From Myxococcota bacterium (GTDB lineage Bacteria; Myxococcota_A; UBA9160; UBA4427), in contig OZ252299.1 in NCBI GenBank assembly GCA_965250285.1, forward strand, positions 64,001-128,000: 64,000 bases of DNA. Direction: 5' to 3'. The translations under genes were made by a program, and so were the position numbers. Each line of letters starts with the position of its first letter. Within the stretch, counting starts at the first letter, position 1. Shown one piece after another: positions 40,481 to 56,566 of the stretch. The notes beneath the pieces were generated by a model. The model did no database searches. It was not told the origin of the DNA and saw only the letters and a program-made list of their open reading frames with translations.

Positions 40481-40529
40481 AGTGGTGGCCCAGGGCGGAT
40501 TTGAACCGCCGACACCTCGATTTTCAGTC
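40481..40529 (-). repeat. att site: duplicated 3' part of tRNA-Phe
   Basis: AGTGGTGGCCCAGGGCGGATTTGAACCGCCGACACCTCGATTTTCAGTC, identical to 56489-56537. Confidence 0.95.
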
Positions 40530-40712
40530 TCCGGCGCGCCTCTACGATCACCTGCGCAGGACCACTCCCGCGCACCCCAAATGCCTGAAAATGATGAAGA
40601 TTGATGGACTCGTGGCCACCCGCGACTACGCTTTGCTGCGTTGGGCTTTGCTTCCGGATGCTTCCGATTTGCTTCCAGCGTCGGTGAGCGTGGCAAAGCC
40701 GGGAGGCCAGTC

Positions 40713-41936
40713 ATGCCGAAGCTCTCGAAGCGCGAAATCGACTCGATCTCGCCCGACCCCTGTCGCGAAGTCTTTGCCTGGGACGATGACCTGAAGGGCT
40801 TCGGCGTGCGCGTGATGCCCTCGGGACGCAAGTCCTTCGTCATCCAGTACCGCTCCGCCGGACGGACCCGCCGCATGTCGCTCGGTGCCGTAGGTGTTCT
40901 GACCCCCGCCCAAGCTCGCTCGGAAGCCATTCAACGTCTCGCGGAGGTCGCGCAGGGCGGTGACCCCTCGCGCGACCGGCGAGTGGCGCGCCTTGAGCCG
41001 ACGATGAGCGAGCTGGCTGAGCGGTACCTCGAAGAACACGCGAAGCCCCACAAGAAGCCCTCGAGCTACGAGAATGACGTGCGTGGGCTTCGACTTCACG
41101 TTCTACCGGCGCTGGGAAGCGCACGGGTCAAGGACGTGACGCGGCAAGAGGTGGCTGAGCTGCACAGTCGGATGAGAGCCACTCCCATCATTGCGAATCG
41201 CACACTCGCGCTGATCTCGAAGATGTTCAGCTTGGCTCGCCTTTGGGGGATTCGAGACGACAACCCGGTCGTCGGTGTTCCGCGCTTTCGAGAGAACCGC
41301 CGCGAACGCTATCTGTCGGAAGCCGAGATCGCGGACCTCGGTCGAACGCTGCGCGAGGCGGAAGCCCAGAGCGTCGAACCCGCTTCGGCGATCGCAGCGA
41401 TTCGGCTCCTGCTGTTCACCGGCTGTCGCAAAGGCGAGATCCTCTCGTTGCGCTGGCCCGACGTGGACTTCGAGAGAGGCTTGCTCTGGCTCAGGGACAG
41501 CAAGACAGGTGCGCGGACCGTCCCCATTAATGCGCCCGCTCGGGAGATCCTCGTCAACCTGCAACGATCTCGAACCGGCGAGACCTGGGTCATTGAGGGG
41601 CGGCACGCAGGGAAACCCCTCGTCGGGTTGTGGCGGGTTTGGAGCCGCGTGCGGGATCGGGCGGGTCTCGTTGACCTTAGGCTCCATGACCTGCGCCACA
41701 CGCACGCATCAGTCGCAGCTGATGCTGGGCTCTCCCTGCCGGTGATCGGCGCGCTTCTCGGTCACGCGAGCCCCGCTACGACCTCTCGCTATGCCCACCT
41801 TGCAGACGATCCGCGTCGCAGAGGTTCCGACATCGTGGGTGCCAAGGTTGCGGCCGCAATGTTCGACGGTCCCCGCGCCGAATTGCTGGATCTACCTATC
41901 GATCCTCGATCGTTGAAGGGGGCGACCAATGGATGA
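40713..41936 (+). CDS. tyrosine integrase, P4-like with N-terminal arm-binding domain
   Basis: WDDDLKGFGVRVMPSGRKSF arm domain; TGCRKGE, SKTG, HDLRH, LLGH, RYAH. Confidence 0.95.
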   Translation: MPKLSKREIDSISPDPCREVFAWDDDLKGFGVRVMPSGRKSFVIQYRSAGRTRRMSLGAVGVLTPAQARSEAIQRLAEVAQGGDPSRDRRVARLEPTMSELAERYLEEHAKPHKKPSSYENDVRGLRLHVLPALGSARVKDVTRQEVAELHSRMRATPIIANRTLALISKMFSLARLWGIRDDNPVVGVPRFRENRRERYLSEAEIADLGRTLREAEAQSVEPASAIAAIRLLLFTGCRKGEILSLRWPDVDFERGLLWLRDSKTGARTVPINAPAREILVNLQRSRTGETWVIEGRHAGKPLVGLWRVWSRVRDRAGLVDLRLHDLRHTHASVAADAGLSLPVIGALLGHASPATTSRYAHLADDPRRRGSDIVGAKVAAAMFDGPRAELLDLPIDPRSLKGATNG

Positions 41937-42288
41937 CGAAAACGATGGTTCGGGCACCCAGCGCACGAATCTGCTTGGCCTCTCGCGGTCGTTCCGTTTC
42001 GAGTTCGAGTCGGAGGACCCGCTGGAGCGGGCTCGCGAGTTCTACCAGCAACTGCCCCAGCCACTCACGGATCCGTTCATGGAGCTTGTCGGTGACTTGA
42101 TCTGTCACGGAGGGAAATCGAGTGTGGGACTCGCGAACGAAGCGTTCGCGAGGCTGATGCAAGACTCCGGTGTGCGCGCCGGGAACTGCGAGAGGTGCGG
42201 TCGTGCCTTTCTCAAGAAGAGCTCGGACAAGCGCTTCTGCCGGCCGACCTGCCGGGTTCAAGCGAATCGGGATCGGAACTTCTCGTAG
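41929..42288 (+). CDS. hypothetical protein with C-terminal CGNR-like zinc finger
   Basis: CERC...KRFCRPTC; overlaps the integrase stop. Confidence 0.65.
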   Translation: MDDENDGSGTQRTNLLGLSRSFRFEFESEDPLERAREFYQQLPQPLTDPFMELVGDLICHGGKSSVGLANEAFARLMQDSGVRAGNCERCGRAFLKKSSDKRFCRPTCRVQANRDRNFS

Positions 42289-42378
42289 CTCCAATTCAGT
42301 TGCTGTGTGCTGCTACGGATACGCGTAGGCGCGCACACTGCGTCCGTTTGGTTCCTTGCGGTACCGAGGGGGACTGCA

Positions 42379-42645
42379 ATGGAGCTTCTAAGGCCAGACG
42401 AGACGGTCTCGTACCTTGAGAAGGTGACCGGACGGCCCGGAATCGTCACATCTCGCACGCTCAAACGATGGCGGCGAGGTCGGCGAGGTCCGAGGCACGT
42501 CCAGCTCGAGGGGCGCATCTACTACAGGGAAGAAGACCTGAGGGTGTGGCTCTCACGCGCCGGAGTTTGGAACGACGCGCGTGATCCGCGCCCGTGGGTG
42601 AGAGGCTCGGCGGACGAGAGCCCGGTCAGGAGGTCGACATCTTGA
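42379..42645 (+). CDS. AlpA/excisionase-like HTH protein
   Basis: TLKRWRRGRRGP...GRIYYREEDLRVWL. Confidence 0.75.
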   Translation: MELLRPDETVSYLEKVTGRPGIVTSRTLKRWRRGRRGPRHVQLEGRIYYREEDLRVWLSRAGVWNDARDPRPWVRGSADESPVRRSTS

Positions 42646-42875
42646 CCTCGAACTCGGAAGCGTCATCGTCGAACGATCGACAGCGCCTTCTCACCACCGA
42701 GGAAGCAGCGCGGTTTCTCGCTGTTTCGCGCCGGACACTCGAGAAGTGGCGCCTCACGGGACAAGGGCCGGCGTACCTGAAGCTTGGCCGAAGGTCTGTG
42801 CGGTACTCGCCCGGAGAGCTAGATCGGTTCCTTCGGGGGAGCGCTCGGTCTTCGACCTCAGAGGTGCCGGTATGA
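42642..42875 (+). CDS. excisionase-like HTH protein
   Basis: LLTTEEAARFLAVSRRTLEKWR...GPAYLKLGRRSVRY; AGGAGG RBS, TTG start. Confidence 0.85.
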   Translation: MTSNSEASSSNDRQRLLTTEEAARFLAVSRRTLEKWRLTGQGPAYLKLGRRSVRYSPGELDRFLRGSARSSTSEVPV

Positions 42876-43156
42876 GCGCCCCCGAGCCCACCGATTCGGA
42901 GACCGGCCGAGAGTCGGTTCTCGAAGGCCGCGTGCGCGACGTTCTCAGTTCGTGCCCGGAGGCGCAGAAATCGCGGTTCCTGAAGCGAGCGGAGAGAGCG
43001 GTAGCGGGTTCCCGGTCTGCCGCGATTGAACTCAAATGCCTCGAATGCTGCTGCTGGTCGCTCTCAGAGGCGCGTTCCTGCCATATCGAGGAGTGTGCGC
43101 TCTGGTCGTATTCGCCGGCTGCTTCTGCCCGCAAACAGCTAGGGGTTCAGGGATGA
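42872..43156 (+). CDS. phage-type Cys-rich hypothetical protein
   Basis: AIELKCLECCC...CHIEECALWSY; translationally coupled. Confidence 0.65.
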   Translation: MSAPEPTDSETGRESVLEGRVRDVLSSCPEAQKSRFLKRAERAVAGSRSAAIELKCLECCCWSLSEARSCHIEECALWSYSPAASARKQLGVQG

Positions 43157-43638
43157 TCGTCGAAGACGATCGCCACCTTTCCCCGAAGGATGACCCCTAC
43201 TCGACGCTGGTTGAGCCCGGCGACAGCTACGTCGTCATGCCGCTCAGAATCGAGATCGGATCGAACTACCGTCGGCTCATCGCATTCGTTCGGTGCCAGA
43301 TCGTTGAACCTGCTGAGCACTCGGGTCTTCACATCTTTCGCTTCGTGAATCTGCCGGCTTGGTGGAAACCTCGTGCGAGGGGCCGAATCGGCAGGCGAAG
43401 CAATCTCTGGGCCGATTGCGTGTCGCTGTCTGGACGAAGGCCACCCGCAGGGTGGTTCGAACTCGAGCGACTCTACGCGGCCGACTCGATGTATCGCGCC
43501 AAGATCGTCACGGTCAGCGAAACCCAGGGCGAGGGTGGGCGTCGGGAGCCGATGCATGTGTGCGAACACTACTCGCGAATCGACCGATTCTTGGGGCAGG
43601 TAGCTGGATCTACCCCGCTAGGTGGCCGGGCTCTGTAA
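43153..43638 (+). CDS. hypothetical protein
   Basis: ATGA overlap with the upstream gene; 161-aa ORF. Confidence 0.55.
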   Translation: MIVEDDRHLSPKDDPYSTLVEPGDSYVVMPLRIEIGSNYRRLIAFVRCQIVEPAEHSGLHIFRFVNLPAWWKPRARGRIGRRSNLWADCVSLSGRRPPAGWFELERLYAADSMYRAKIVTVSETQGEGGRREPMHVCEHYSRIDRFLGQVAGSTPLGGRAL

Positions 43639-43987
43639 CCCAAACCCTAACCACAACCGCAACACTGACGGGAACCTCAACAGCAACAGGATACGGATAG
43701 AACTGGCCAAGGAATACGGGCACTTAGAATCGGTCCATCCATCTCGACGCCGACCTCCGGAGACGTGTGAGACATGCAATGCGCGCTTCTGTGACTGGGC
43801 GATCTGCTTAGAACGTTTTCCACCGGGTCGCTTGCTCGACCCACTCACTCGGGAATCCAGCCAGGGGGGAGGCGGCCCTTGTTGGGGCCGTCCTCTCCTG
43901 ACTCGGATCTAGCCAGATCCCCGAGCCGCTGTGGGCCATGAAATCCAGGTTGGCCATGTGATTTCGATGAAATGGTGGAGCTGAAGG

Positions 43988-44602
43988 ATGGGAGGCATTG
44001 GGTCCGGGCGCTACGGAACACGGCCACTCGTCGAGAACACGCTCAAGCTCGACGTGCTCTTGCTCACACGCAACGGGATTAGGCTGGGCGATGGCAACGT
44101 GTCGTGGAACAGGGGAGGGGAGCTGCTCTCGTCGATCGCATACAGAGTCGGCCGAGTTGGGTCCGATCCGACTTTGACGCTTCGCTATCTCGCCGGGCCA
44201 GAGAAGCGACCTATGCGGCAGATGATTCACCTTCAGTCGACACGCCCTCATCTGGGCGGCGAAAGATGGTGGTTTACCTGTCCACTGGAGGGCCGTCGAT
44301 GCCGGATGCTCTACTTCGGAGATGTTGTTGGCTTCAGCGGATTCGCTGGCCGAAGAGCACTTGGCCTCGCGTACCGGTCGCAGTGTGAGCACGCGGGAGA
44401 TCGCGCACTTCGACGAGCGCAGAAGCATCTACTTCGCCTAGGCGGCGAGGGCTGTATCGCAGATGAGATCGAGGGTCTACCGAAGCCAAAGTGGATGCGA
44501 TGGAAGACGTTCCATCGGCGGATGCTGGCTGCTCAACTGGCCGACGCGGAGAGCTGGGCATGGGCGTTCGAGCGAGTAGGCTCGACGCCCCACGATCGAT
44601 AG
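43988..44602 (+). CDS. conserved prophage/island hypothetical protein (MGGxGSGR family)
   Basis: MGGIGSGR...GGERWWFTCP...LAYRSQ...KPKWMRWKTF. Confidence 0.75.
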   Translation: MGGIGSGRYGTRPLVENTLKLDVLLLTRNGIRLGDGNVSWNRGGELLSSIAYRVGRVGSDPTLTLRYLAGPEKRPMRQMIHLQSTRPHLGGERWWFTCPLEGRRCRMLYFGDVVGFSGFAGRRALGLAYRSQCEHAGDRALRRAQKHLLRLGGEGCIADEIEGLPKPKWMRWKTFHRRMLAAQLADAESWAWAFERVGSTPHDR

Positions 44603-44813
44603 CGGTCGTCAAGCCTGACTCCGCCCCAGCGACTCGATGCCCCCCCCAATGTGTCTCGGACGTGATATGAAGCATCAGTCTCATTCTCCGCTTCGCGCGA
44701 CCCCTTGCGATCGTCGCAAAGCGTCGAATCTACAGCTAGTTGCGAAGGCCGACGCTGATATCGCTAGGATCTTACTCGGCGAGAGCGGCGATGGGCGTCG
44801 CCGTCGAATACAA

Positions 44814-44820
44814 GTTAGGC
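44814..44820 (+). other. integron recombination core (attI-like) at head of cassette array
   Basis: GTTAGGC followed by GGCGGC is the exact reverse complement of the GCCGCCGCCTAAC start of attC1; no attC body upstream. Confidence 0.7.
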
Positions 44821-44871
44821 GGCGGCTTCAGCCGGGAACGGCCAGGCTTGAGCCCAGCCGTCCCCAGACCT

Positions 44872-45117
44872 TCACTCATCTCTGAAGTAGTAGTTCCGCG
44901 GCTCGCCGTCGTACTGCCCGGTCCTCAGGCAGCACTTCTTGAAAACCGGCGTCCCGAGCCGCACGGACACAAGTCATTCCGCCCGAGCTTCTCCTCGAGC
45001 TCCTTGTTCCCGTGCACGACACGTCGGCCGCGCTTCACATGCGTCTCGCTGGGGTAGCCCTTCCGGCGCTTACTCGTTCTCTCGAAAGCGCGGGAGGTCG
45101 TCGTTCTTGGTTGCCAT
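44872..45117 (-). CDS. SEC-C metal-binding small protein split over reading frames (cassette 1, reverse orientation)
   Basis: GGGAGGT RBS + ATG 45117; [16 protein letters not shown] in one frame and [22 protein letters not shown] in another; may be recoded or a pseudogene. Confidence 0.75.
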
Positions 45118-45170
45118 GGGGCACCTCCCTTCTTGTGCGGGCCGTGGTGGCCCGGGCTTTGGGCGCGCAG

Positions 45171-45199
45171 GTTGTACCTCAGGTTGGGTGTGCAGTCCA
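45171..45199 (-). promoter_or_regulatory. sigma70-like promoter for the SEC-C cassette gene
   Basis: TGGACT-17 nt-TACAAC on the minus strand. Confidence 0.4.
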
Positions 45200-45236
45200 C
45201 GCTGCGCAGGCCACCAGCAATTTCGGGCACGCCGCC

Positions 45237-45367
45237 GCCTAACAAGCCGTTGCAGCGGACTTGCTCCCGCTGAGACGATCTCGGGTCGTGGTAGACTGGC
45301 GAGCGTCCGAGGCGTTCAGCCACTGCGAGCAAGGCCGCCGCAAGCCGCTGAACGCCGACCGTTAGGC
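45237..45367 (+). repeat. integron attC site 1 (131 bp)
   Basis: GCCTAAC...CAGCGGACTTGC...GCAAGCCGCTG...GTTAGGC imperfect palindrome (RYYYAAC...GTTRRRY). Confidence 0.92.
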
Positions 45368-45376
45368 GGCGGGCGC

Positions 45377-45757
45377 GTGCGCACACTCGCGGCATTGCAT
45401 CCGATCCTCCTCGCTGGGTGCCCGGCGACATACTGGGCTCAGATTCAGAACGAGTCCTCAAGCCGTCTCGTAGCCGTTCCGCCGTTCGAGTCCTCGTACG
45501 CGGTTGCGATCTCATCGGGCAGTTCTGCGCGGGTCTCCTGGTATCAGCCATGCCTAGTTCTTGTCGACGTCGACCGAGCCGAAACCAGTTTCTTTCAAAC
45601 GTTCCCGTTCCCCGACAACGTGGCGAGAACTCGCATGTTCTCGGTCAGACTCGAAGCAACGTACTCAGAGGGCCGTCTCTTCCTCGAGGCCGAAGACGGG
45701 TCCCGATTCGAGGTGCCCCGCGTCGCCGAGTGCTCAGCTGCCACTCCCGCCGCCTAA
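45377..45757 (+). CDS. cassette 2 ORF, probable lipoprotein
   Basis: GTG start, LLAGC lipobox; stop TAA lies inside the GCCTAAC of attC2. Confidence 0.65.
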
Positions 45758-45882
45758 CAAGCCGTTGCAGCGGACTTGCTCCCGCTTAGGCGATATCGGG
45801 CCGTGGTAGAATCACGCTCGTCCGAGGCATTCAGCTGCTGCGAGCAAGGCCGCCGCAAGCCGCTGAACGCCGACCGTTAGGC
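45752..45882 (+). repeat. integron attC site 2 (131 bp)
   Basis: Same structure as attC1. Confidence 0.92.
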
Positions 45883-45896
45883 AGCGGGGCCCGGAG

Positions 45897-46139
45897 ATAG
45901 GACGCTACAAGTTCAAACTCGGGAACAAGCCCAGGCGCAAGCGCCGTCTCGATTCCGGACGGTCGCGTCTTCCCGGACCCGAGCGCCCGGCTGAACGCCC
46001 TGAAGTATCCGATAGGCGTCTGCTCTCGTTCTCCGACGCGAAGTGGCGCGTCCCCACATTCTCAGAGCTCCTGGCCTTCGCTGCAATCGCCAGCATTTTC
46101 GCTGTGATCGTCGCGTCGGTCTATTGGCCGGGGCCCTAG
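45897..46139 (+). CDS. cassette 3 ORF (80 aa, C-terminal TM) lacking a canonical start
   Basis: Open frame from ATA at 45897 to TAG 46139: IGRYKFKLGNKPRRKRR...LLAFAAIASIFAVIVASVYWPGP. Confidence 0.35.
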   Translation: MGRYKFKLGNKPRRKRRLDSGRSRLPGPERPAERPEVSDRRLLSFSDAKWRVPTFSELLAFAAIASIFAVIVASVYWPGP

Positions 46140-46225
46140 GTGGGGCTTCCTCTGCTTCGCTTCAGCGTTCATGAGTATCTCTGCCACTTGACTCAGGCTT
46201 GGCACTCGTGTCTGCATCCGCCGCT

Positions 46226-46356
46226 GCCTAACAAGCCGTTGCAGCGGACTTGCTAACGCCGAGGCGATCTCGGGTCGTGGTAGACTGCCGGGTGTCCGAG
46301 GCGTTCAGTCGCTGCGAGCAAGGCCGCCGCAAGCCGCTGAACGCCGACCGTTAGGC
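46226..46356 (+). repeat. integron attC site 3 (131 bp)
   Basis: Same structure as attC1. Confidence 0.92.
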
Positions 46357-46365
46357 AGCGCGACC

Positions 46366-46776
46366 GTGAGCCGGGCCGATGGACTCGTCCTGCATTCTCG
46401 ACAAATGAAGCACTCGCGCTGGCTTGCAAGGGGCTTCGCGACGCTTGCGATTCTCAATTCGATTCAGCGGGCGTGGCCTCAGGCCGCCCTGTTTACTGCG
46501 TGCGCCGTCGTGTTCTTCGCATCCACTCGATCAAACTTGAACTGGCTGCTCCTTTCAGACTCCATCGAGTTGCCGAGAGGTCCTTGGCGTCAACCGCGCT
46601 CGCTTGATCTAACGAAGCTGGCTTCGTGGCAATTCTTCCAGCCGACGAATGAGCTTACGCTGACCTTCCGAGATTCCTCCTCTAAGAAGCTGAGCCTTAG
46701 CATTCTAGAGCCAGACTCCCGCAACGATCTCGTTCGTGAACTCGAATCCCGCGCACCCGGTAGACACGTCACCTAG
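46366..46776 (+). CDS. cassette 4 ORF, membrane hypothetical protein
   Basis: Fills the cassette; two hydrophobic segments followed by a small soluble domain. Confidence 0.6.
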   Translation: MSRADGLVLHSRQMKHSRWLARGFATLAILNSIQRAWPQAALFTACAVVFFASTRSNLNWLLLSDSIELPRGPWRQPRSLDLTKLASWQFFQPTNELTLTFRDSSSKKLSLSILEPDSRNDLVRELESRAPGRHVT

Positions 46777-46787
46777 CGACGCGCGCT

Positions 46788-46918
46788 GCCTAACAAGCCG
46801 TTGCAGCGGACTTGCTAACGCTGAGGCGATATCGGGTCGTGGTAGAATCTCGGACGTCCGAGGCGTTCAGCAGCAGCGAGCAAGGCCGCCGCAAGCCGCT
46901 GAACGCCGACCGTTAGGC
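46788..46918 (+). repeat. integron attC site 4 (131 bp)
   Basis: Same structure as attC1. Confidence 0.92.
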
Positions 46919-46921
46919 GGC

Positions 46922-47389
46922 ATGGCGAATCCCCTGCTAACAACGCTTGCTGCTGTCGCCCTCGTATGCTGCTCGGGTACGGTGTCTCAGTCGAACATCG
47001 ACGGCGAGCCGACATCCCATTGCGAGCCAAAGCCACCGATAGAGTACGCTGCCTATGGCGTCGTCTTGAGCATCTCATCATCGAGTTGCATAGACGCCTC
47101 TGCACCGCTTCGTGATGGTGCCGGGTACGAATGGCTGTACGTCTACGATACGTATACCTTCCGGAATTCAGAGCTAGAGCTAGCGGCGCGCAGCTATGGC
47201 GAATCGTCCGAAGCTCACTTTCTCCGCCTTTCTGAGTCGGGCGAATCTCGATTCCTCACACACTCCGACTTCGACACTCCCATCGTTCTCGCGGCGGTCC
47301 AGTATCTATCCGAAGCGGGCAAATCCGAGCTCACGTGGCTCGACCCTCAGAATGACCTCAACGGCTATTCGCCAGTACCCTCTCGGTAG
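46922..47389 (+). CDS. cassette 5 ORF, exported/lipoprotein hypothetical
   Basis: ATG 3 nt after attC4; MANPLLTTLAAVALVCC signal. Confidence 0.65.
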   Translation: MANPLLTTLAAVALVCCSGTVSQSNIDGEPTSHCEPKPPIEYAAYGVVLSISSSSCIDASAPLRDGAGYEWLYVYDTYTFRNSELELAARSYGESSEAHFLRLSESGESRFLTHSDFDTPIVLAAVQYLSEAGKSELTWLDPQNDLNGYSPVPSR

Positions 47390-47402
47390 GCTGAGGCATT
47401 CC

Positions 47403-47533
47403 GCCTAACAAGCCGTTGCAGCGGACTTGCTAACGCTTGAGCCGATTTGGGTCGTGGTACCATGCCGGCTATCGATGGCGTCTCGGCGCGCTGTGCCAAA
47501 TCGGCGCAAGCCGCTGAACGCCGACCGTTAGGC
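47403..47533 (+). repeat. integron attC site 5 (131 bp)
   Basis: Same ends, more diverged centre. Confidence 0.9.
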
Positions 47534-47573
47534 AGCGGAGGTTCTGGCACCGTGACCATGGGAAGCATCGTCG

Positions 47574-48806
47574 GTGTATAGCTTGATCGTTTCTCACCAG
47601 TTCAGTGACTGGGAGGGCAGAGCCTTCCAGTTCAACAAGGGACGCTTCCTTGAGTACACGAGCGACGCGATAGCAGAGCAGTTGTGGCCCCTGTCGACCG
47701 AGGCCATCGAGTGCCTCAAGTCGTGGCCGTGCATTCTGATGGACGAGGGGCGAGCGGAGGAGCTCGTTCGCATCGCCCGCATATCGGAGCTTCAGGATCT
47801 TGGCGACGAGATTTGGCTAGCCGTCGATCTCGTTCCGACCAAAGTGCCCATACTCAACGACCACCTTTGGCGAGTCCGGGATGAGCTGGACGTACGGCAG
47901 TTCGAGTTCAGCCGGAACCACTGGGCAGTGAAGGAGCGGGACCTCTTCAGAGTCCTTCGGGCAGCCGGGCTCGATTGCGAGAGCTCCGCGAGCGGCGCCG
48001 TGGAGGAGAGGCCGCTTCCCGCACCTACCCGGGCCTCCTTGATCGCGGCACGAAACTCGATCTCCAACTGGACTCATACTGAAATCGACGATCTGCTGCT
48101 GGAAGCGGGCGTGGCGGGTCTATCTGCGGGGCGAGGGTTGGGCAGCCGCCGTGACCGCGCCAACGCGATCGTTCAGTTCGCGATCGCGAACCCGTCGGAA
48201 GTAACCGCAGAGAACTCTCTGTTCTCCGCCTACCTCGTGAGGCGATCTGTCGGAGCTGGCGATGGAGACGCGGAGGATGCCTCTTCGCCTCTGATTCACG
48301 AGGGCGCTTCCGTGCCTCAACCACAAACCGGCGACGGCTCCACCCCCCGATCCTCCAATCGGGTCTTCGTGGTACACGGGCAAGACGAGACTGCTCGCAC
48401 TGCGGTCGTCGCTTTCCTTGAAAGCCTAGGATTGGTTGGAGTCGTCCTCCATGAACAACCGAACATGGGTCGTCATCTTCTCACGAAGTTCATCGACGAA
48501 GCGGACCTAGCAACTTTCGCCGTAGTCCTTATGACAGACGACGACGTAGGAGGTCTCAAGGGTCAGGAGCTCGCGCCCCGGGCTCGCCAAAACGTGATCC
48601 TAGAGTTGGGCTACTTCCTTGCACACCTCGGTCAGGCAAGCGTATGCGCTCTTGTCGCGCCCGGCCTGGAAACGCCCTCGGATTTCGACGGCATCGTCTA
48701 CATCACCATGGACGATGATCAACGATGGCAAGAAGAGCTGAAGCGCGAACTCTTGGCTGCGAAGATGCCTGTTGTCGAAGCCCCGAATAGCGCATCCGCT
48801 GGCTAG
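47574..48806 (+). CDS. multi-domain protein with C-terminal CAP12/Pycsar-type TIR-like domain
   Basis: RVFVVHG, LHEQPNMG, FAVVLMTDDD, RARQNVILELGYF, PSDFDGIVY. Confidence 0.88.
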   Translation: MYSLIVSHQFSDWEGRAFQFNKGRFLEYTSDAIAEQLWPLSTEAIECLKSWPCILMDEGRAEELVRIARISELQDLGDEIWLAVDLVPTKVPILNDHLWRVRDELDVRQFEFSRNHWAVKERDLFRVLRAAGLDCESSASGAVEERPLPAPTRASLIAARNSISNWTHTEIDDLLLEAGVAGLSAGRGLGSRRDRANAIVQFAIANPSEVTAENSLFSAYLVRRSVGAGDGDAEDASSPLIHEGASVPQPQTGDGSTPRSSNRVFVVHGQDETARTAVVAFLESLGLVGVVLHEQPNMGRHLLTKFIDEADLATFAVVLMTDDDVGGLKGQELAPRARQNVILELGYFLAHLGQASVCALVAPGLETPSDFDGIVYITMDDDQRWQEELKRELLAAKMPVVEAPNSASAG

Positions 48807-48974
48807 TAGGGGCTTGCACTTGACAACGGACAGCTGGGCGTTCCTAGGTTCGGTAGCGTTCTGGCGACGGGACTTCTGTAGTTTGGTGCTGACGGTCAGC
48901 GCTGTATGTCGCAGCTGAAACCCGATCTTTTGGGCAGCACGCTGCCTGGTTGCCCTGCGCGTTCCAGTTGATCA

Positions 48975-49952
48975 ATGGCGCTTGACCACTACGTTTCTCA
49001 GGTTCATCTCCGCGGGTTTGTCGCATCGGACCTCGGCAATCGAATGTTTGCGACTAGCAAGAGCACGCTCAAGAGGTTCACGCCAACGCCCAAAGCCGTC
49101 TGCAGAATCGAAGAGGGAAGCACCAACGACTACTTGAGCGATCCGCGTGCTGTCGAGGACTTTCTGAAGCTCATCGAGCCGAAATACAACTCCGCGGTCG
49201 ACTCTCTCCTGGCCTCTGACATTCACGATGACGTGATCATGACGCTGGCCGGCTTCGCCGCGTACGTCTACGTATGCTCTCCCGCAGGTATGCGACTTGC
49301 CATGGGTCCGCTTCGCGCATCTGTGGAGGCGACCGCCGAGATTCTAGACCGGCAAGGCGAACTCCCGCCGATACCACAAGGGCTCGGTGCATCCTCGATC
49401 AGGGAGCTCTTTGAGATGCAGGCGCTCAAAGTTGACGTAGATCCGAAGTTTCCACAGGCAATGGGAATCTCGCAGATCGTTCAGCTGGCGGCTCAGCTCG
49501 GCAACTTCCCTTGGGAGATTCTTCGAAATGAAGAGCGAGGCAGCCCGTTCTTCACATCAGACTTTCCAGTCGCGCTACAGCAGAGTTCCGATCCTCGTAT
49601 CATGAACAGGATTGTTCCGCTCACGCCTAAGCTAGCGATTCGAATCCTCCCGAACTTTGAGTCCAGGACGGATGAGCCAGACCTCTCGTTCTCCGGCTTC
49701 AGGTACCGAGTCCGTACCCTGCGCCGCAGCGAAGTTCGAGTAGTCAACGAGCTGCTCGTTCGTGCTGCGGAAGACTTCGTGTTCTACTGCGAAGATCACG
49801 CCTGGACGCCGAGGTTCATCGAACGAAACCGACACTACCGAACTGAATCCGTGACCGAGAGGATCCCGACGCCCACGGGCGGCGAGCTTCAAGTCAGTGG
49901 CCAGCGAATCGCGCCGTTTCGGCGACCGCCCGCGGCTGTAGGATCAGCCTGA
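48975..49952 (+). CDS. DUF4238 domain protein
   Basis: N-terminal HYVSQVHLRGF and FFTSDFPV...PLTPKLAI motifs. Confidence 0.8.
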   Translation: MALDHYVSQVHLRGFVASDLGNRMFATSKSTLKRFTPTPKAVCRIEEGSTNDYLSDPRAVEDFLKLIEPKYNSAVDSLLASDIHDDVIMTLAGFAAYVYVCSPAGMRLAMGPLRASVEATAEILDRQGELPPIPQGLGASSIRELFEMQALKVDVDPKFPQAMGISQIVQLAAQLGNFPWEILRNEERGSPFFTSDFPVALQQSSDPRIMNRIVPLTPKLAIRILPNFESRTDEPDLSFSGFRYRVRTLRRSEVRVVNELLVRAAEDFVFYCEDHAWTPRFIERNRHYRTESVTERIPTPTGGELQVSGQRIAPFRRPPAAVGSA

Positions 49953-50130
49953 GTGGTTGCCCGCGGTCTGGCAAGCCGTTGGATCGGGCCGCCCCCAGCT
50001 GCGGCGGTATCGGCGTTGGTACTTTTTTTGGCAACTAGCCGGGTGCATTCTGCGAAGCCGGTCAGCAGCTGGCCGATGTCGCTAGACGTCGACCGTTTGG
50101 CAGTTTGAAGCACGAGGAAACCAGTAGAGC

Positions 50131-51333
50131 ATGACTGCTCCTTCGAACAAGAAGTATCGGGCCGCACTTGTTGCAATATTTATCAGCGGCGGTGTGCTGG
50201 CAGCTCTGGTCGGGCTAGTTCCCTTCATACTTGGTAACGCACCGCCGGTTCCCGTACTTGAACTGACTCCTGCTGAGAAGTACGGCTATGCACCGATGAC
50301 TCTTGTAGCCAACGGCAGCCGATCCTCAGACCCCGACGGCGATTCGCTAACTTACGCTTGGCGCTTCAACGGCCAGGGCGAAGCTGAAGTGTCATCGCTC
50401 TTGGAGAAGCGAATTGCTAGGGGAGGGAAGTACCGGCTTGAGTTCCAGGTCTCGGATGGAAGCCACAGTCTCCCACCCCTCATCGAGTTGATCACCGTTC
50501 TCCCGCCGCTGAAGGATCTCGAAATCCCACCGCTGGCCCAGGACACCGTCCTGACTCATCCCGACGTGACACTCGTTCTGCCTCCAGAAATCGTAACGAA
50601 CGGATTCGGCCTTACGATCGAAGCTGGCGGCATCAAGGCAGGCGACACGAAGATCGTCTCTTTCATCAAGCCTAAAGCCGATCCCGTCTCGCCAGGGTCG
50701 AACGGTTCACGAGGAGGGCGGACAGGGATTCACGGCGACCCGGGTGAGAATGGAGCTGATGGATCAGATGGCAACGATGGCAAGTCACCTGGGCCTATCG
50801 TGCTGAAGGCCCCCTTCCTGTCAGGGAACCTTGCGATATCGAACCGTGGACAGAGTGGCGGAGACGGCGCGCCAGGGGGATCTGGGGGAAGTGGCGGGAG
50901 CGGTGCGAACGGACGCAACCGCGGCGGAGACGCAATCTGTTCAAACGATGTGCGACCCGGCAATGGCGGTAACGCTGGGAGGGGCGGCGATGCGGGTCGG
51001 GGCGGCGATGCGGGTGATGGAGGCAGCGGCGGCGATGTCACCGTCATCGTGGAAGATATTGATGCCCAGATCACGGTCGATGTTTCGCCGGGCTCACCAG
51101 GTATGCCGGGAGAACCTGGAACGCCCGGGCAACCTGGCTCTCGAGGAACTGGTGGTAGGCGGAGCCACTGCGGGGGCGGGGGGAGTGACGGAGGTGCGAA
51201 CACCGCCGGATCCGAACGGCCCGAGGGAGCGCCCGGCTCGACTGGCCACCGCGGCAACATTAAGTTCGTGATCGGTGGTCTTGAGCAGAATTATGCCACT
51301 AGCTCGGCCACACTTCGGAGATTGAGGAAGTAG
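50131..51333 (+). CDS. membrane-anchored PKD-domain protein with collagen-like Gly-rich repeats
   Basis: N-terminal TM; GSRSSDPDGDSLTYAWRF; long GxxGxx runs. Confidence 0.75.
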   Translation: MTAPSNKKYRAALVAIFISGGVLAALVGLVPFILGNAPPVPVLELTPAEKYGYAPMTLVANGSRSSDPDGDSLTYAWRFNGQGEAEVSSLLEKRIARGGKYRLEFQVSDGSHSLPPLIELITVLPPLKDLEIPPLAQDTVLTHPDVTLVLPPEIVTNGFGLTIEAGGIKAGDTKIVSFIKPKADPVSPGSNGSRGGRTGIHGDPGENGADGSDGNDGKSPGPIVLKAPFLSGNLAISNRGQSGGDGAPGGSGGSGGSGANGRNRGGDAICSNDVRPGNGGNAGRGGDAGRGGDAGDGGSGGDVTVIVEDIDAQITVDVSPGSPGMPGEPGTPGQPGSRGTGGRRSHCGGGGSDGGANTAGSERPEGAPGSTGHRGNIKFVIGGLEQNYATSSATLRRLRK

Positions 51334-51797
51334 CGGCGGCTCAGGAATGTTCCGGACGTGGCCGCCACATGGCACCGCGTTTCAGCGGATCGGCAGAACC
51401 TCGGTCCAATCGAACTCGGCTGCCAACTCGCACAATGCTCTGGGCGCAGGCTCGACCATGGCAAACGCTGTATTTGGCCGCGGTACCCCGACGTACGATC
51501 CCCGCGACCTCCTGAGGCCACTTCGCATCAAGCCGGTTGCGAAACCGACACAGGCATAGGGATTCTAAACACTCGGTCAGGCATCCGCGGAGCTGTAATC
51601 ACGCGCGGTGTTGGGCCCGGACGACGCGGCTCACCGATGTGGCGATCAGCTGGAATGCTCCTCATCGATCCGAAATGCCGCATCAAACAACGAGAAGGCA
51701 CGGCCATGCCTTGACAACAGAAGTGTTGTTGGCCGCAGGCGCGTCTGCCGGACCCAGTCGTGGTGAGCTGAACACAGAACATGCCACTCCGGTCCGG

Positions 51798-52292
51798 CTA
51801 AATCGGCGCAATTGTGAGCGTGATCCCGGGCAGATCGTTCACATCGTCGTCAAGGCACTCGTCATCACTCGCATGCAACGTGACCACGATCTTTCGGTTC
51901 TCGATGAGCCACCCATCACTCAGGTTGGTGCTTGAGCGCTCGCTCCACCCCGCCTTGCCCAGGACCTCTGCAATCGCAGAAGACAGACCCTTGGCTTCGC
52001 TGACCGCTTTGGACGCCGACTGGCGGCACCACTTCACAGCGAGCTCAGGGGAGCTCCCTGGTGACCCTGTTACTTCACAAGCCGAGCTGTTCGGCGGTAA
52101 CTTCTTACACTTCCACCAATGATGAGTGTCGTCCCACATCTCCAAGTCCTTCGCCCCTCTCATCGAGGAGAAGTCTGACTCCGACGCTTTGATCGCTGCG
52201 CGTAGAAACTCTTCAACGCTCTCAGCACCTGCGGCTCCCGGGATGGCAATTGAAGCCAATATGACTGCAATAGTCATCACAGCTGATCTCAT
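51798..52292 (-). CDS. exported hypothetical protein
   Basis: GAGGA RBS; signal peptide MRSAVMTIAVILASIAIPGAAGA; 4 Cys. Confidence 0.6.
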   Translation of the reverse strand: MRSAVMTIAVILASIAIPGAAGAESVEEFLRAAIKASESDFSSMRGAKDLEMWDDTHHWWKCKKLPPNSSACEVTGSPGSSPELAVKWCRQSASKAVSEAKGLSSAIAEVLGKAGWSERSSTNLSDGWLIENRKIVVTLHASDDECLDDDVNDLPGITLTIAPI

Positions 52293-52309
52293 ATCCTCTA
52301 CCCCTCGTT

Positions 52310-53137
52310 CTAGAGACCGAAGTTCCGCCTGCCGTAGCTGAATGCTTGCGAGAATCGAGTTGCACCGCGGAGCGCGAGTTCCCAACCAGCGGTCGCAGCT
52401 TGGAGACGCTGTGCCGGTGTGCCGTGGTGACCACGTGAGTTGAACGCGTAGTCACCCTTGTCGAAAACTGAACGCGCGGCACCTCGCGCATCGAAACGTG
52501 AGCCATGAGCAGTCTTGAATCCGAGATACCAGCCAGCCACGAAATCGGCCAGGAGTTCCATCTTCACGGTTGTTCCTACGGCATTCGCATTGAACTCAGC
52601 GATGTGAGCCCACTCATGAGCCATAATGAAGACGGCCGCACCCTCCCAAGCCAATGACTGCTCTTCTTGCTCCTGCTTGAGGAGATTGACACCGAAGCAA
52701 ACGGACCCGTGAGAACTCCCGAGGAAGGGGTCACTCGTGGCGAAGGCATTAGGACCGTCGGAGTCGTCGAAGAACGCAAACCCTGGTCGGTAGCCCATTA
52801 CGTCACCCAGCACCCGCGTTTCGAGCGAGAACGCCTGATCGATGTAGGGCCAGCCGGTGCGCTCAAGTAGCTCGAAGTTGGATTGGAGGGCTCTCGAGTC
52901 AGCCCGGTTGAGTGTGCAGCCTTGGTCAAGCGAAAAGGTCGCTCGGTCGCCACGCGTCTGCCTGCTCTGGCTACCATCGCCCGCTGATGGCCAACCGGCG
53001 CCACTCGATCCGCTGCTGCCCCCTCCCTCTTGATTCGAGCTTTCGCCTGGCCAGCCGCTCGCCAGCCCGAGCCTGGAGTAGGAACACGAACCCGCCGCAA
53101 CCCAGGCGGCGATAGACAGGAATGTCCTTCGGTCCAT
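52310..53137 (-). CDS. Tat-exported neutral zinc metallopeptidase
   Basis: MDRRTFL Tat motif; AHEWAH, ELLAD..AG, HGTPAQR. Confidence 0.8.
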   Translation of the reverse strand: MDRRTFLSIAAWVAAGSCSYSRLGLASGWPGESSNQEGGGSSGSSGAGWPSAGDGSQSRQTRGDRATFSLDQGCTLNRADSRALQSNFELLERTGWPYIDQAFSLETRVLGDVMGYRPGFAFFDDSDGPNAFATSDPFLGSSHGSVCFGVNLLKQEQEEQSLAWEGAAVFIMAHEWAHIAEFNANAVGTTVKMELLADFVAGWYLGFKTAHGSRFDARGAARSVFDKGDYAFNSRGHHGTPAQRLQAATAGWELALRGATRFSQAFSYGRRNFGL

Positions 53138-53163
53138 CCGACAGCCCTCCTCGGGCCAGATGT

Positions 53164-53655
53164 TCAGGAGTATTTCTTGATGCGAATAAAGACGTAAGGC
53201 TTGGACCCTGTAGAGGCGGTAAGGGTGATGCTCATCTTGTCTAGGGTGACGAGGCCAGAGCTCTGCCTTGTGTTGGTCAGTACCCAAAACGACTCGCTCT
53301 TGTAGTACTTGCCTGACTTCGAGTCAGACTCCTTGTGCTCGACCTTGACGCGTCCTATTCCCTCCACAACCTCCCATTCGCCAGTGAAGCAATCCGAAAC
53401 ATCCGAGAACATCGACGAGAAGAACGCGGAACTAGCGCTACGCGACATCCCTCGCCACTCGCACTCCACATGATCGCGAGAGGAGTCACAAGCCGAGTCA
53501 TCGGGAACAGAGGTAGGAGCGGACCCCTTCCCAAGTGCCCCGATCATCGCCCTCAAGTCTCGACAGACCTCACCAGCATCGGCGGGGCTCGGCGATGCGA
53601 TACCCAATGCTACGATCGTCGCAGCAACGCGCGAAAGAGTTCGACCGTCAGCCAT
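53164..53655 (-). CDS. exported hypothetical protein
   Basis: GAGGAG RBS; signal peptide ending ADA; 4 Cys. Confidence 0.6.
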   Translation of the reverse strand: MADGRTLSRVAATIVALGIASPSPADAGEVCRDLRAMIGALGKGSAPTSVPDDSACDSSRDHVECEWRGMSRSASSAFFSSMFSDVSDCFTGEWEVVEGIGRVKVEHKESDSKSGKYYKSESFWVLTNTRQSSGLVTLDKMSITLTASTGSKPYVFIRIKKYS

Positions 53656-53817
53656 CAACGTCTCCTCGGCGCATCGGTCGTCAACCGCCGACGCCGTTGT
53701 GAAGAAAGCTCTCAGCCCGAGCGCGACATGCCCCCGTGCGGTGAACTTTTGAGTTCCCAATAGCGCTGCGCGAGGCGAGTACAGTTGGAGCCCGTCCACC
53801 GCTAAAGGTCTGGCTGG

Positions 53818-54108
53818 TCAGCGTCCTAGGTCCGTCACAGCCCACCGAACCATGCACTTCCACCGTTTCCAGGTGGCTGCGTCCGAGTCCTCCTCGCAGT
53901 CGCAGCTCTGGATGTTCACGTGCTTCTTCCCATAGGTGGCGATACTGCTCGTCTTAAGTTCCGCCATCTCCAACGCGCTTGAGCAGGCGTCGATCTTTGA
54001 TCCTCCGACTCCAATCTCGTGCCCGGTGGCATCACCAAGCGCAAGTGAGGCGCTGGAGATGGATATGACACCAATGGCCCCGGCCAGGTACGTCCAAGTG
54101 CTATTCAC
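53818..54108 (-). CDS. small exported Cys-containing protein
   Basis: GAGGT RBS; signal peptide; C...CDC...C. Confidence 0.6.
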   Translation of the reverse strand: MNSTWTYLAGAIGVISISSASLALGDATGHEIGVGGSKIDACSSALEMAELKTSSIATYGKKHVNIQSCDCEEDSDAATWKRWKCMVRWAVTDLGR

Positions 54109-54159
54109 CCGTACACCTCTCTACCAACGCCGACCTCAGAATTGCTGCGTCCAAACAGA

Positions 54160-54450
54160 TCATGGGTCTGGCAGGCATTCGACGAGCTGGCAGAGCTTCT
54201 CGCAGGCAGGTGGCTTAAGGCCGCACTGGTGTCGACCTGGCTTCGGTACACCTGCATCGTTGAAGCCGCAGCCCGGAGAAGGCCTGATCTCTTCCCGCAG
54301 CTCTCCACCGGGACAAAAGTCGCCAGGATCAGCCGGCTCGAACCTGGGCCCGGCTCCCTCTCTGCCGGGTGCGGTCGACGTATCGTCGTCAGCGACTAGA
54401 GGTCCGACGCATAGGAGTGTCGTAGCCGCGATTGCAAGAAGACACCGCAT
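54160..54450 (-). CDS. small exported Cys-rich hypothetical protein
   Basis: MRCLLAIAATTLLCVGPLVA signal; 6 Cys in the mature part. Confidence 0.4.
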   Translation of the reverse strand: MRCLLAIAATTLLCVGPLVADDDTSTAPGREGAGPRFEPADPGDFCPGGELREEIRPSPGCGFNDAGVPKPGRHQCGLKPPACEKLCQLVECLPDP

Positions 54451-56490
54451 TACGACCACGAGCGTTGTCTCCGCTTTGGGTCGCCGACTGCGGCACCGAC
54501 GAGTGAACCTCAGTTTGGAATCTCTTGCAGACTCAGGAGGTATCATCGATCGTATTGTACCCAACTCTGGCAATCCCTAAACGCTCTGCCCTCACCCACC
54601 TCGCGATGCACGCAGCAGCGGCTCAGTCGTAGGCGTTTCTACGCGTGGCCACTCTTCACCTCGACTCCTTCAGACTGCCCCGCTGGGGATTGACGATGCG
54701 GTTGCCGAGGGAGGAGACCTTTGCCGTCATCTCGAGTCGGTAATTCGAGGAATCAACATGGGCTGCGTTTAAAGACTCATGAGCGACCTCTGGGGTAGTG
54801 AAGCTCAACTCGTTTGCGCAACACATCTACGCGTACCGCATCTCGATTGGGTTCGATAGATATGCGATTGCTCACATTCGCCCGGCCTCATTCAACTGTT
54901 CCGAGAAGATTCGAGCCGCGCACTCATGAAGGCCATCCACTCTCAGTGCTCTCGCGAAGCGGGATCGAGCTGCGTGGCCCGACGCCATCTCCAGCTCGTG
55001 CTCCTCGTGATCTGCTACCGAAGCGATCTCGAGCGCCATCGCGTCCGAAGCGTGTTGAGTAGGCGCCATCACCAACGGGACGCAGTACCTAACCGCGACT
55101 TCTCGTGACACCCCAACTCCGTCCACGATCTGGCGATTGAACCTTGGAATCCATCCAGCGTGCACGACCTTGCTTGGCCCGCAACACCGAAGTGTGCCTG
55201 AAACCCGCCGGACGTGCCGCAGCCTCGATCCCCTCAGAAACCAAAGCATCTGCCAGATACGGAATGACCTAGGGTGCGGCATTGAACGCATGGCGGCTGA
55301 CATGTCACCGGTCGGGCGGGGATCGGTAGGCTGCAGATAGGATCGGTCCCCATACATGCAGTTGGCAGACACCATGTCGAAAAGGCACAGCGCTGGCGTT
55401 CGCTGAGTCTACCCAGCGATGCGAATAGACAAGGTCGCGAGCCGCCGGCTAACGACGTTCACCGGCGTGCGGACAAGTCCTGTGCCCCAGACCCTTGATA
55501 CTCGGATGCCATCTACCCACCCCAAGTGAAACGCGTGCCGGCGGGTGCACAGTGGGCTGTCGATGGCTGCTCGCGTCCGGAGAACTCACTTCGCCACCGC
55601 CGTCGATTCCGTTTTCGTGGTTGCCTCACTTTCGGTTGGCTGAACCGTATTGGGCAGTCTCACCGGCGCGTCTCTCTCGTAGCCGGCGCGGATCGCACCC
55701 GCGATCGGAGATTCGCAGTGCGTTCGGAACGGATCGGTACCGACAACCAGCCCACAGTGCCCGCGCTGAGAGCTCGTTCGTTCTGAGTTTCGGGTCTATT
55801 CGCGCTGCAACGCCACACGTCCGCGCCGGAATCAGAGACTTCGGCCTAGAGCGCGATCACTAATCTTCCATCGTCGAGATGGTCATTCATGTGCACGCGA
55901 AGCACGTCTCGGGGGACCACTCGTACTTCAGATACTCAGGTACGGGGTAGGTGTCAGGAACGACTTCTCGCTCGAGTTCCTTGGACCACGTTGCGATCCA
56001 GGAGGCCTGCGTGCCTCAGCAATGAACTCCTGAGTCACTGGATCGATCGTCGACGGCTTGTCACGTGAACACGGGCGCCGTTTTCATGCTCAAACAGGAA
56101 CAAGGGTGGTTGGTTTGTGCCCGAGGTCAGCCCCTAAATCAGAAGGCGGTTGGACCCTCCCATGCTGCAGGGTCTTCTTTGACTGTGCCAACACAGAACC
56201 CGATTAGAGGCTCTTGGTCTTCCGCAACTATCCCGGCCACCTCGACGACTTGCAGAGCTCGACGCACAGACACGATCTCAAGCTTCGTGGCCAGACTGGC
56301 TACTTGTCTGGCAAGTCGTGAGATTTGCTGAGGAGTTGTTGCGTCATCCGCAGCCCACTCGGCCATGTAACGGATGGCCGAGCGCCGGGTGTGACGGAGT
56401 GCCCCGTGCTTCCGCTGGGCTTCCGGCAACTCGACCCAGCGAGCGATTGCCGAGGGCGAATCCCTAAGTGATTGTTTTGTAGGGGAAAAG

Positions 56491-56566
56491 TGGTGGCCCA
56501 GGGCGGATTTGAACCGCCGACACCTCGATTTTCAGTCGAGTGCTCTACCAACTGAGCTACCGGGCC
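56491..56566 (-). tRNA. tRNA-Phe (GAA), CCA encoded
   Basis: GGCCCGGTAGCTCAGTTGGTAGAGCACTCGACTGAAAATCGAGGTGTCGGCGGTTCAAATCCGCCCTGGGCCACCA, 76 nt cloverleaf. Confidence 0.97.

Follow-up and report, generated by a model that had tools for sequence, protein, structure and literature searches.

The question raised by this locus is whether a small SEC-C gene that must change frame twice to encode its whole motif is a decayed gene or one that is recoded during its expression. The window referred to below is the whole stretch of 64,000 nucleotides analyzed, and the gene lies on its minus strand (Table 1). An earlier note on this DNA, made from the sequence alone, had described a strong ribosome-binding site (GGGAGGT) and ATG followed by an early stop codon, and this description is borne out: segment 1 closes with a Phe codon (TTT, 45087-45085), after which frame 0 holds four sense codons and a TAA. 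A +1 shift had been placed at CGC TTT C, and skipping C45084 indeed opens the SKRR...CPC frame, which runs to a second Phe codon (TTT, 44945-44943) and ends in CPC-G-S-G-R-R-F. The KxCC...FRDE-stop frame starts at 44940 and its stop ends at 44872; the last two Cys of the SEC-C motif, which are its last two metal ligands, are therefore reached only past site 2, as the note had held. Entry into this frame needs 44942-44941 to be skipped (+2) or a -1 shift. The note left both readings of CGG TTTT C open; the break itself stands, but the -1 reading was rejected because inspection finds no good tRNA re-pairing on G-GTT-TTC, and +2 is preferred.

Taken alone, the middle segment matches the Pfam SEC-C model over positions 1-13 of 19 (26.7 bits against a cut-off of 20.4), and metal binding by the protein would be expected from this motif. 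The positions numbered 3 and 4 in the family are unshifted in this copy. TCA, the frame-0 codon after site 2, is seldom used by the source genome (1.7 per 1000), whereas CGA is only moderately rare there. The view that the gene keeps its promoter, ribosome-binding site and downstream hairpin holds in part: the ribosome-binding site is present, as is the hairpin, although it lacks a U-tract, whereas the promoter comes down to boxes seen by eye. A consensus scan of the surroundings of the gene called no promoter and no terminator.

Table 1. Features of the SEC-C gene and its surroundings (positions are those of the window).
Feature	Position	Strand	Remarks
Shine-Dalgarno sequence GGGAGGT	45123..45129	minus	5 nt ahead of ATG; from sequence
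Segment 1, 11 codons, start codon to first Phe	45085..45117	minus	ATG at 45117; leader variable across homologues
Shift site 1, CGC TTT C, +1	45084..45090	minus	next codon in frame 0 is CGA; TAA five codons on
Segment 2, basic conserved core and first half of SEC-C motif (CPC)	44943..45083	minus	
Shift site 2, CGG TTTT C, +2 needed in window copy	44941..44948	minus	family form is +1 at TTT C/T
Segment 3, KxCC (last two metal ligands), DG motif, aromatic tail, stop	44872..44940	minus	
GC-rich hairpin directly past the stop	44830..44867	minus	-33.8 kcal/mol; without U-tract
Possible own promoter, TGGACT, 17 nt, TACAAC	45171..45199	minus	by eye; below scan threshold
Integron-type cassette with the gene, presumably inverted	44814..45367	plus	GTTAGGC 44814-44820; attC-like repeat 45237-45367
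Host island, 16 kb, at the genome's only tRNA-Phe gene	40483..56566		tRNA-Phe 56491-56566, minus

Because the source genome is a single 6.25-Mb contig, the breaks had to be checked against homopolymer error. In three runs (depth 51-77), possibly of the source samples, contigs built from short reads cross the gene and agree with it at every base, with no gap. A contig of another study (depth 3) covers 44881-45129 with four substitutions and 0 gaps; it is 98% identical and keeps both breaks. Sequencing or homopolymer error, a doubt that the earlier note itself had raised, is ruled out by these contigs, and both frame breaks are real and present in the genome. A second doubt was that the breaks might be peculiar to this copy among uninterrupted homologues. 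The homologues are likewise broken at Phe sites, which rules out a simple unique pseudogene for the family; for the window copy the matter is taken up below.

A genome search with the middle segment gave at least 327 relatives among the 600 candidates listed, the best 80 of these being used, and a metagenome search, with the alignment led by the intact core, gave at least 576 relatives among the 600 candidates listed, of which 80 were used. The family loci carry 14 phylum labels, as read from record titles. Two full viral copies were found, annotated phages gave no match to the family, and five viral matches to the SEC-C motif alone (L083-L087) were left out of all counts. In a group of genomes centered on a planctomycete carrier, 40 of 101 carry the gene. 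Cultured carriers include Chthoniobacter flavus (L027), Brevifollis gellanilyticus (L025), and Novosphingobium fluoreni (L057). Homologues are broken at up to four Phe positions (sites 1 to 4): ahead of the core, within SEC-C, ahead of the DG motif, and two codons short of the stop. Lineages that do not have a given break read the recoded sequence in frame there, which serves as an internal control.

Site 1 is shifted at 77 of 81 loci, by +1 in 70 and by +2 in seven. For sites 2-4, frames were counted between fixed motifs in 159 distinct loci, free of any rule on the codon, with five loci without an anchor and one without the CC anchor left out. Of 260 shifted intervals, 248 contain TTT-Y, nine CTT-Y and three neither, whereas the 165 unshifted intervals comprise five with TTT-Y, five with CTT-Y and 155 with neither. 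Codons competent for re-pairing thus account for 257 of the 260 shifted intervals, across 14 phylum labels. At L062, L095, L098, L133, L136, and L165 a Leu CTT-C shift, located after the CC motif, replaces the Phe shift, and L071 has CTT TGA, as in prfB. When in-frame TTT+C/T is read as a four-base Phe step, the full consensus protein is rebuilt at 71 of 82 genome and viral loci, 50 of 75 anchored metagenome loci and 19 of 28 further loci. Among the loci examined where this rule fails, the majority can be rebuilt once a CTT site, a TTTTC site or one unshifted TTT-Y is allowed for, and some run off the end of their contig. The core Phe that must not shift (before Pro/Ala-Ser) is TTC in 79 of 88 genes, with kin kept in, and TTT-C in the other nine; in flanking ORFs, Phe before C or T is TTT in 286 of 608 cases. 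The frame-0 codons after Phe are TGA/CGA at sites 1 and 3, CAA/TAA at site 2, and TAG/TTT/CAG at site 4. The A-site codons are mostly stop, CGA, CAA, CAG, or TTT, but they are set by Y and the conserved next residue.

The earlier note had pictured two breaks at the same two sites. The type of site, Phe, stands; the number and place do not, since there are four or more movable sites with usually three shifts. Among 99 dereplicated genes, 66 have three shifts, 16 have two, 16 have four and one has a single shift, and no rebuilt gene has zero. The variance of the shift total is 0.36; shuffling the sites raises it to 0.82, and none of 5000 shuffles came out as low, with kinship ignored. Site turnover amounts to 9-17 parsimony changes per site on a weak tree. 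When compensation between sites 2 and 3 was tested on the tree so as to allow for kinship, with only one or two supported pairs, the result did not reach significance. Sites change place between lineages, and the number of slips, usually three, may be what is kept.

A Shine-Dalgarno sequence of the GGAG/GAGG type precedes the start in nearly all homologues. In L057, L058, L070, L137, and L151, ATA is found behind a strong Shine-Dalgarno sequence where ATG is expected, possibly a further brake on expression. Many planctomycete copies (e.g., L011, L023, L053) have an in-frame ATG right after site 1 (Met-Ser-Lys-Arg-Arg), which could permit an internal start; the window copy has ACG there.

Selection acts on the recoded protein. 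In the recoded frame of 114 codon-aligned genes, uncorrected pN/pS is 0.19 for the basic core/CPC segment and 0.39 and 0.31 for the KxCC-to-stop part, with 0 stops, so purifying selection, the pattern that the earlier note expected of a recoded gene, is found in all three conserved segments; the variable leader (segment 1) could not be aligned and lies outside this test. Read in the other frames, the same genes have pN/pS of about 1-2 and contain many stops. Synonymous positions vary freely along the whole gene, and the four Cys are invariant. No conserved RNA stimulator was found around the sites, no internal Shine-Dalgarno-like stimulator matched consistently upstream of sites 2 and 3, and no conserved upstream RNA motif was seen in 83 upstream regions. 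By eye, a GAAC[CT]-about 16 nt-GTGTC pattern was noticed upstream of L024, L026, L038, L049, L052, L053, L055, L063, L067, and L071, mostly planctomycete copies; we take it to resemble an ECF sigma promoter.

At the level of sequence, the comparison establishes that the breaks are conserved and tied to in-frame TTT+C/T, and that the recoded segments are under protein-level selection. The preference for programmed recoding over random decay is strongly supported for the family by the codon signature and by selection, and the window copy itself may be a damaged allele. The full protein across the UUU-Y breaks is likely to be read by serial +1 slippage of the P-site tRNA. Very probably, peptidyl-tRNA-Phe would leave UUU and re-pair with the overlapping UUY during the delay at an A site that holds a stop or slow codon, and in a minority of sites tRNA-Leu would slide from CUU to UUY. 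UUU-Y is described as especially prone to +1 shifts in bacteria in passages of a review (PMC5009743), and +1 shifting at UUUC of FseA occurs in 4-13% of events, according to parts of PMC4755241. On the other hand, in-frame TTT+Y occurs 3310 times across 2348 long ORFs of the source genome; these ordinary sites, together with the failure to find a conserved stimulator, count against serial slips.

Two other ways of reaching the recoded frame were considered. The mRNA might be corrected before translation, with RNA polymerase slippage or an editing enzyme taking out one base per T run; the breaks do sit in T runs, and the +2 sites of the window copy and L026 have longer ones. However, the runs are mostly 3-4 T, compared with the T runs above 8 named for polymerase slippage in parts of PMC3711429, the CTT-C sites have just two T, the signal follows codon phase, and no shared editing-type neighbor was seen at the loci. 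The transcriptional slippage that the earlier note had allowed for fits poorly for these reasons of run length, CTT-C sites and codon phase, and correction of the mRNA is highly improbable. Still less credible is a dedicated tRNA-Phe, altered or with a four-base anticodon, that reads UUUY as one codon. It would explain why one four-base rule rebuilds most genes, and some copies do lie inside tRNA arrays, one of them a viral array with three tRNA-Phe genes. These three genes, in L082, are nevertheless called with a plain GAA anticodon, the only tRNA-Phe of the source genome has a normal 7-base loop, and the CTT-Y and TTTTC sites do not suit such a tRNA. Moreover, UUU-Y is not a general four-base code, because the source genome has its thousands of ordinary in-frame sites and nine of the 88 genes tolerate an unwanted one. 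Serial P-site slippage is the explanation retained below.

The window copy departs from the family pattern at site 2. Its +2 TTTTC is the only such case among 98 shifted site-2 intervals, and the plain +1 rule applied to this copy gives a product without the last two cysteines; two successive slides would be needed to reach UUC. One account, somewhat short of an even prospect and compatible with recoding in the family, is that the fourth T arose by a replication slip that disabled a two-shift cassette gene. The similar copies L148 and L170 use +1 at site 2, and L169, L170, and the plasmid copy L171 carry other damage. Only three of 61 genomes of the lineage of the source genome, itself counted, carry the gene, and both carriers among the 60 relatives (L169, L170) have non-canonical breaks. 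No repair partner turned up in the source genome, where no RtcB was found and tblastn gave no match for other RNA-repair genes with the queries used. Against a disabling slip, the same allele occurs in the strain four substitutions away from the other study (depth 3), L026 has the identical five-base TTTTC site at site 1 in an otherwise intact gene, and elsewhere the window gene has no stop and no lost cysteine. Its net shift, +3, also equals the family mode. The window copy is atypical, and there is a serious but less than even possibility that it is impaired.

The gene lies within a putative mobile unit. Its arrangement, a single gene with a GTTRRRY core site on one side and an attC-like repeat on the other, is that of an integron gene cassette, and the cassette is taken to be inverted because plus-strand ORFs lie between later repeats. 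The attC-like repeat beside the gene is the first of five in a cluster within the island, and about 55 more copies form an array at 5.46-5.50 Mb of the genome. The island carries a 47-bp duplication of the tRNA-Phe gene (att) at 40483-40529 and a tyrosine integrase gene at 40641-41936. Past the last attC, an ORF at 47574-48806 with a CAP12/Pycsar TIR domain is followed by a DUF4238 ORF (48975-49952); the two are likely to be defense cargo. On a Ca. Manganitrophus plasmid (L171:8757-13212), a decayed copy has a tyrosine recombinase gene on one side and a SIR2 + ATPase pair on the other.

What such a gene might do is suggested by its neighbors. Flanks were examined at 162 loci (604 kb, mostly 1.5 kb per flank), with tRNA genes counted at the default scan threshold. 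Genes for RtcB, RtcA, RNA ligase, AAA_33 kinase, Thg1, Hen1, or TROVE proteins occur at 30 of the 162 loci, mostly just downstream and on the same strand, and at least three same-strand tRNA genes occur at nine. A repair gene or a tRNA array flanks 36 loci, and 126 have neither within the flanks examined. The repair neighbors fall into kin groups; in the planctomycete-centered group, whose members are kin, the coordinates place an RNA ligase gene no more than 3 kb downstream of the mini-gene in 20 of 40 carriers, and a further carrier has Thg1. On a viral contig (L082:155-6127), a tRNA array (Ser, Leu, three Phe, Tyr) surrounds a three-shift copy. A DinB/IMS polymerase gene is directly downstream in the related copies L001, L074, L110, L131, and L161.

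In Anabaena, translation stress or impaired translation switches on a long tRNA array with rtcB, as described in parts of PMC8421152. This precedent and the repair-gene or tRNA-array flanks favor a translation-stress switch as the role. The yield would scale as f^k, with k sites each slipping at rate f; at the 4-13% of FseA, three sites would give about 0.01-0.2% full-length product, an estimate we regard as slightly better than even. Loss of tRNA or stalling that raised f would make full-length output climb steeply. On balance, it is somewhat more likely than not that the serial +1 slips of this small basic SEC-C gene form a steep switch, with protein made chiefly under slow or damaged decoding. 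This protein would be a basic peptide, unfolded for the most part, that carries a metal knuckle; it may bind RNA or the ribosome and serve the RNA-repair and spare-tRNA response beside which its gene is often found, which we consider plausible but not quite an even chance. A fuller proposal is put forward more tentatively still: a widespread bacterial serial-frameshift sensor with about three slips of one ribosome on a short mRNA, the output of which would follow roughly the cube of the slip rate, acting as an amplifier that turns on or aids RNA-repair and spare-tRNA systems after damage to tRNA or ribosomes. The source genome without RtcB and the 126 loci without such a neighbor count against a switch of this kind.

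The earlier note had offered the gene as a sensor of Phe-tRNA supply. This is unlikely, because the tRNA slips off the Phe codon UUU, and Leu can take the place of Phe, with CUU-Y in nine of 260 intervals; the waiting codon is mostly a stop or CGA/CAA/CAG. A constitutive dampener, in which the same slips at a fixed low rate keep a harmful or potent small protein scarce and noise-free and nothing is sensed, has been proposed for FseA, according to parts of PMC4755241. It would be in keeping with the predicted proteins fetched with an intact-core query, where only one of 317 continues unbroken from the core as far as the natural end, and with the lack of any rebuilt gene with zero shifts; the A-site codons also differ between sites, so that no single signal is obvious. 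A weak Shine-Dalgarno sequence or start codon would be cheaper, however, and the Shine-Dalgarno sequence is strong in nearly all copies. Such a dampener leaves the association with RNA repair and tRNA arrays unexplained, and we think it rather unlikely.

The position of the repair genes, mostly directly downstream and on the same strand, might also point to a leader acting in cis, where a ribosome that reaches the last stop melts a hairpin or couples to the next gene and so switches on downstream repair genes. Site 4 contributes just two residues and changes the stop position by 7 nt, a hairpin lies behind the stop in the window and can be seen at several other loci, and ketolide-induced frameshifting in the ermC leader provides a precedent in passages of PMC5009743. 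Yet 59 of 138 nearest downstream ORFs are on the opposite strand (mechanical ORF calls), the window copy has no repair gene behind it, and selection acts on amino acids, including the four invariant cysteines, with synonymous change free. A cis-acting leader is thus quite improbable, and a switch that works through its protein product is preferred.

The protein itself resembles known proteins only in its motif. Pfam matches of the window gene are to SEC-C only, a PDB sequence search gave only SEC-C knuckle matches, and the ESM Atlas gave SEC-C clusters only. Whole-protein NCBIfam models of YchJ, YecA, and SecA reached at best 34 bits against cut-offs of 68-267. The AlphaFold model is of low confidence (pLDDT 57, with residues 9-25 under 50). 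No true fusion was seen in 13 inspected of 63 longer matches, the inspected ones resembling run-on ORFs. Binding to RNA or the ribosome would be consistent with the charge of the protein and with work on the SecA motif. In a cyanobacterial copy (L028, 1330-1710) all three shifts lie in a long leader and the core is uninterrupted; this core would be a useful natural source of intact protein. The frame breaks explain why databases contain many truncated proteins under the names "SEC-C metal-binding protein" or "YecA."

A literature search at the level of titles and the beginnings of abstracts found no paper on a SEC-C frameshift family, which the GeneTack supplements or the 2016 Burroughs and Aravind survey could list. 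SEC-C is absent from the passages drawn on from the text of the Atkins review and the main text of the GeneTack paper. In the portions used of the tRNA-array paper (PMC8421152), neither text nor supplement has SEC-C, and the text has no frameshifting. The bacterial regulatory frameshifts described in passages of the review use one site. The serial form appears to be new and the underlying recoding mechanism is known; the recoding is strongly supported by comparative sequence, and its function is suggested by context. If confirmed, a family with two to four interchangeable sites packed into some 250 bases would be a natural multi-input switch on decoding accuracy. It would also offer a ready reporter of conditions that promote UUU-Y slippage in bacteria, and a candidate link from tRNA damage to RNA repair. 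We know of no regulator of the RNA-repair response in the lineages concerned.

Several known systems share parts of this arrangement. The SEC-C proteins (SecA C-terminus, YchJ, YecA; PF02810) have the C-x-C...C-C metal motif in common with the family, but the likeness is confined to about 20 residues, and the flanking conserved parts match no known family. The trn operon of Anabaena is similar in that supernumerary tRNAs and RNA-repair genes are neighbors, and it differs in being controlled at transcription. The closest case of frameshifting may be FseA (msi172-msi171 of Mesorhizobium ICEMlSym-R7A), a mobile-element gene in which, as described in parts of PMC4755241, tRNA-Phe slips +1 from UUU to UUC and the shift is required for a functional protein. 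FseA has one site and a conserved upstream G-rich stimulator and is a transcription activator, whereas the SEC-C mini-gene has two to four movable sites, no conserved stimulator that was found, and an unrelated small product; Pfam gives no FseA/DUF2285 match in the window gene, and no conserved Trp-Gly codons precede the sites. In prfB (release factor 2), the P-site tRNA at CUU UGA C likewise re-pairs on UUY while a stop codon occupies the A site, but there is one fixed site with an internal Shine-Dalgarno sequence and one factor is sensed. In the family the sites are serial, the A-site codons are stop or sense, no such Shine-Dalgarno sequence was found, and UUU-stop is common while CUU is the minority codon (CUU-Y in nine intervals, with a single CUU UGA). 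Several shifts per gene are also known from Euplotes and from sponge or yeast mitochondria, as described in passages of PMC5009743; these are eukaryotic or organellar cases, in which shifting is widespread or corrects inserts. The SEC-C family, on the other hand, would confine its serial shifts to a single short gene of bacteria whose decoding is otherwise ordinary.
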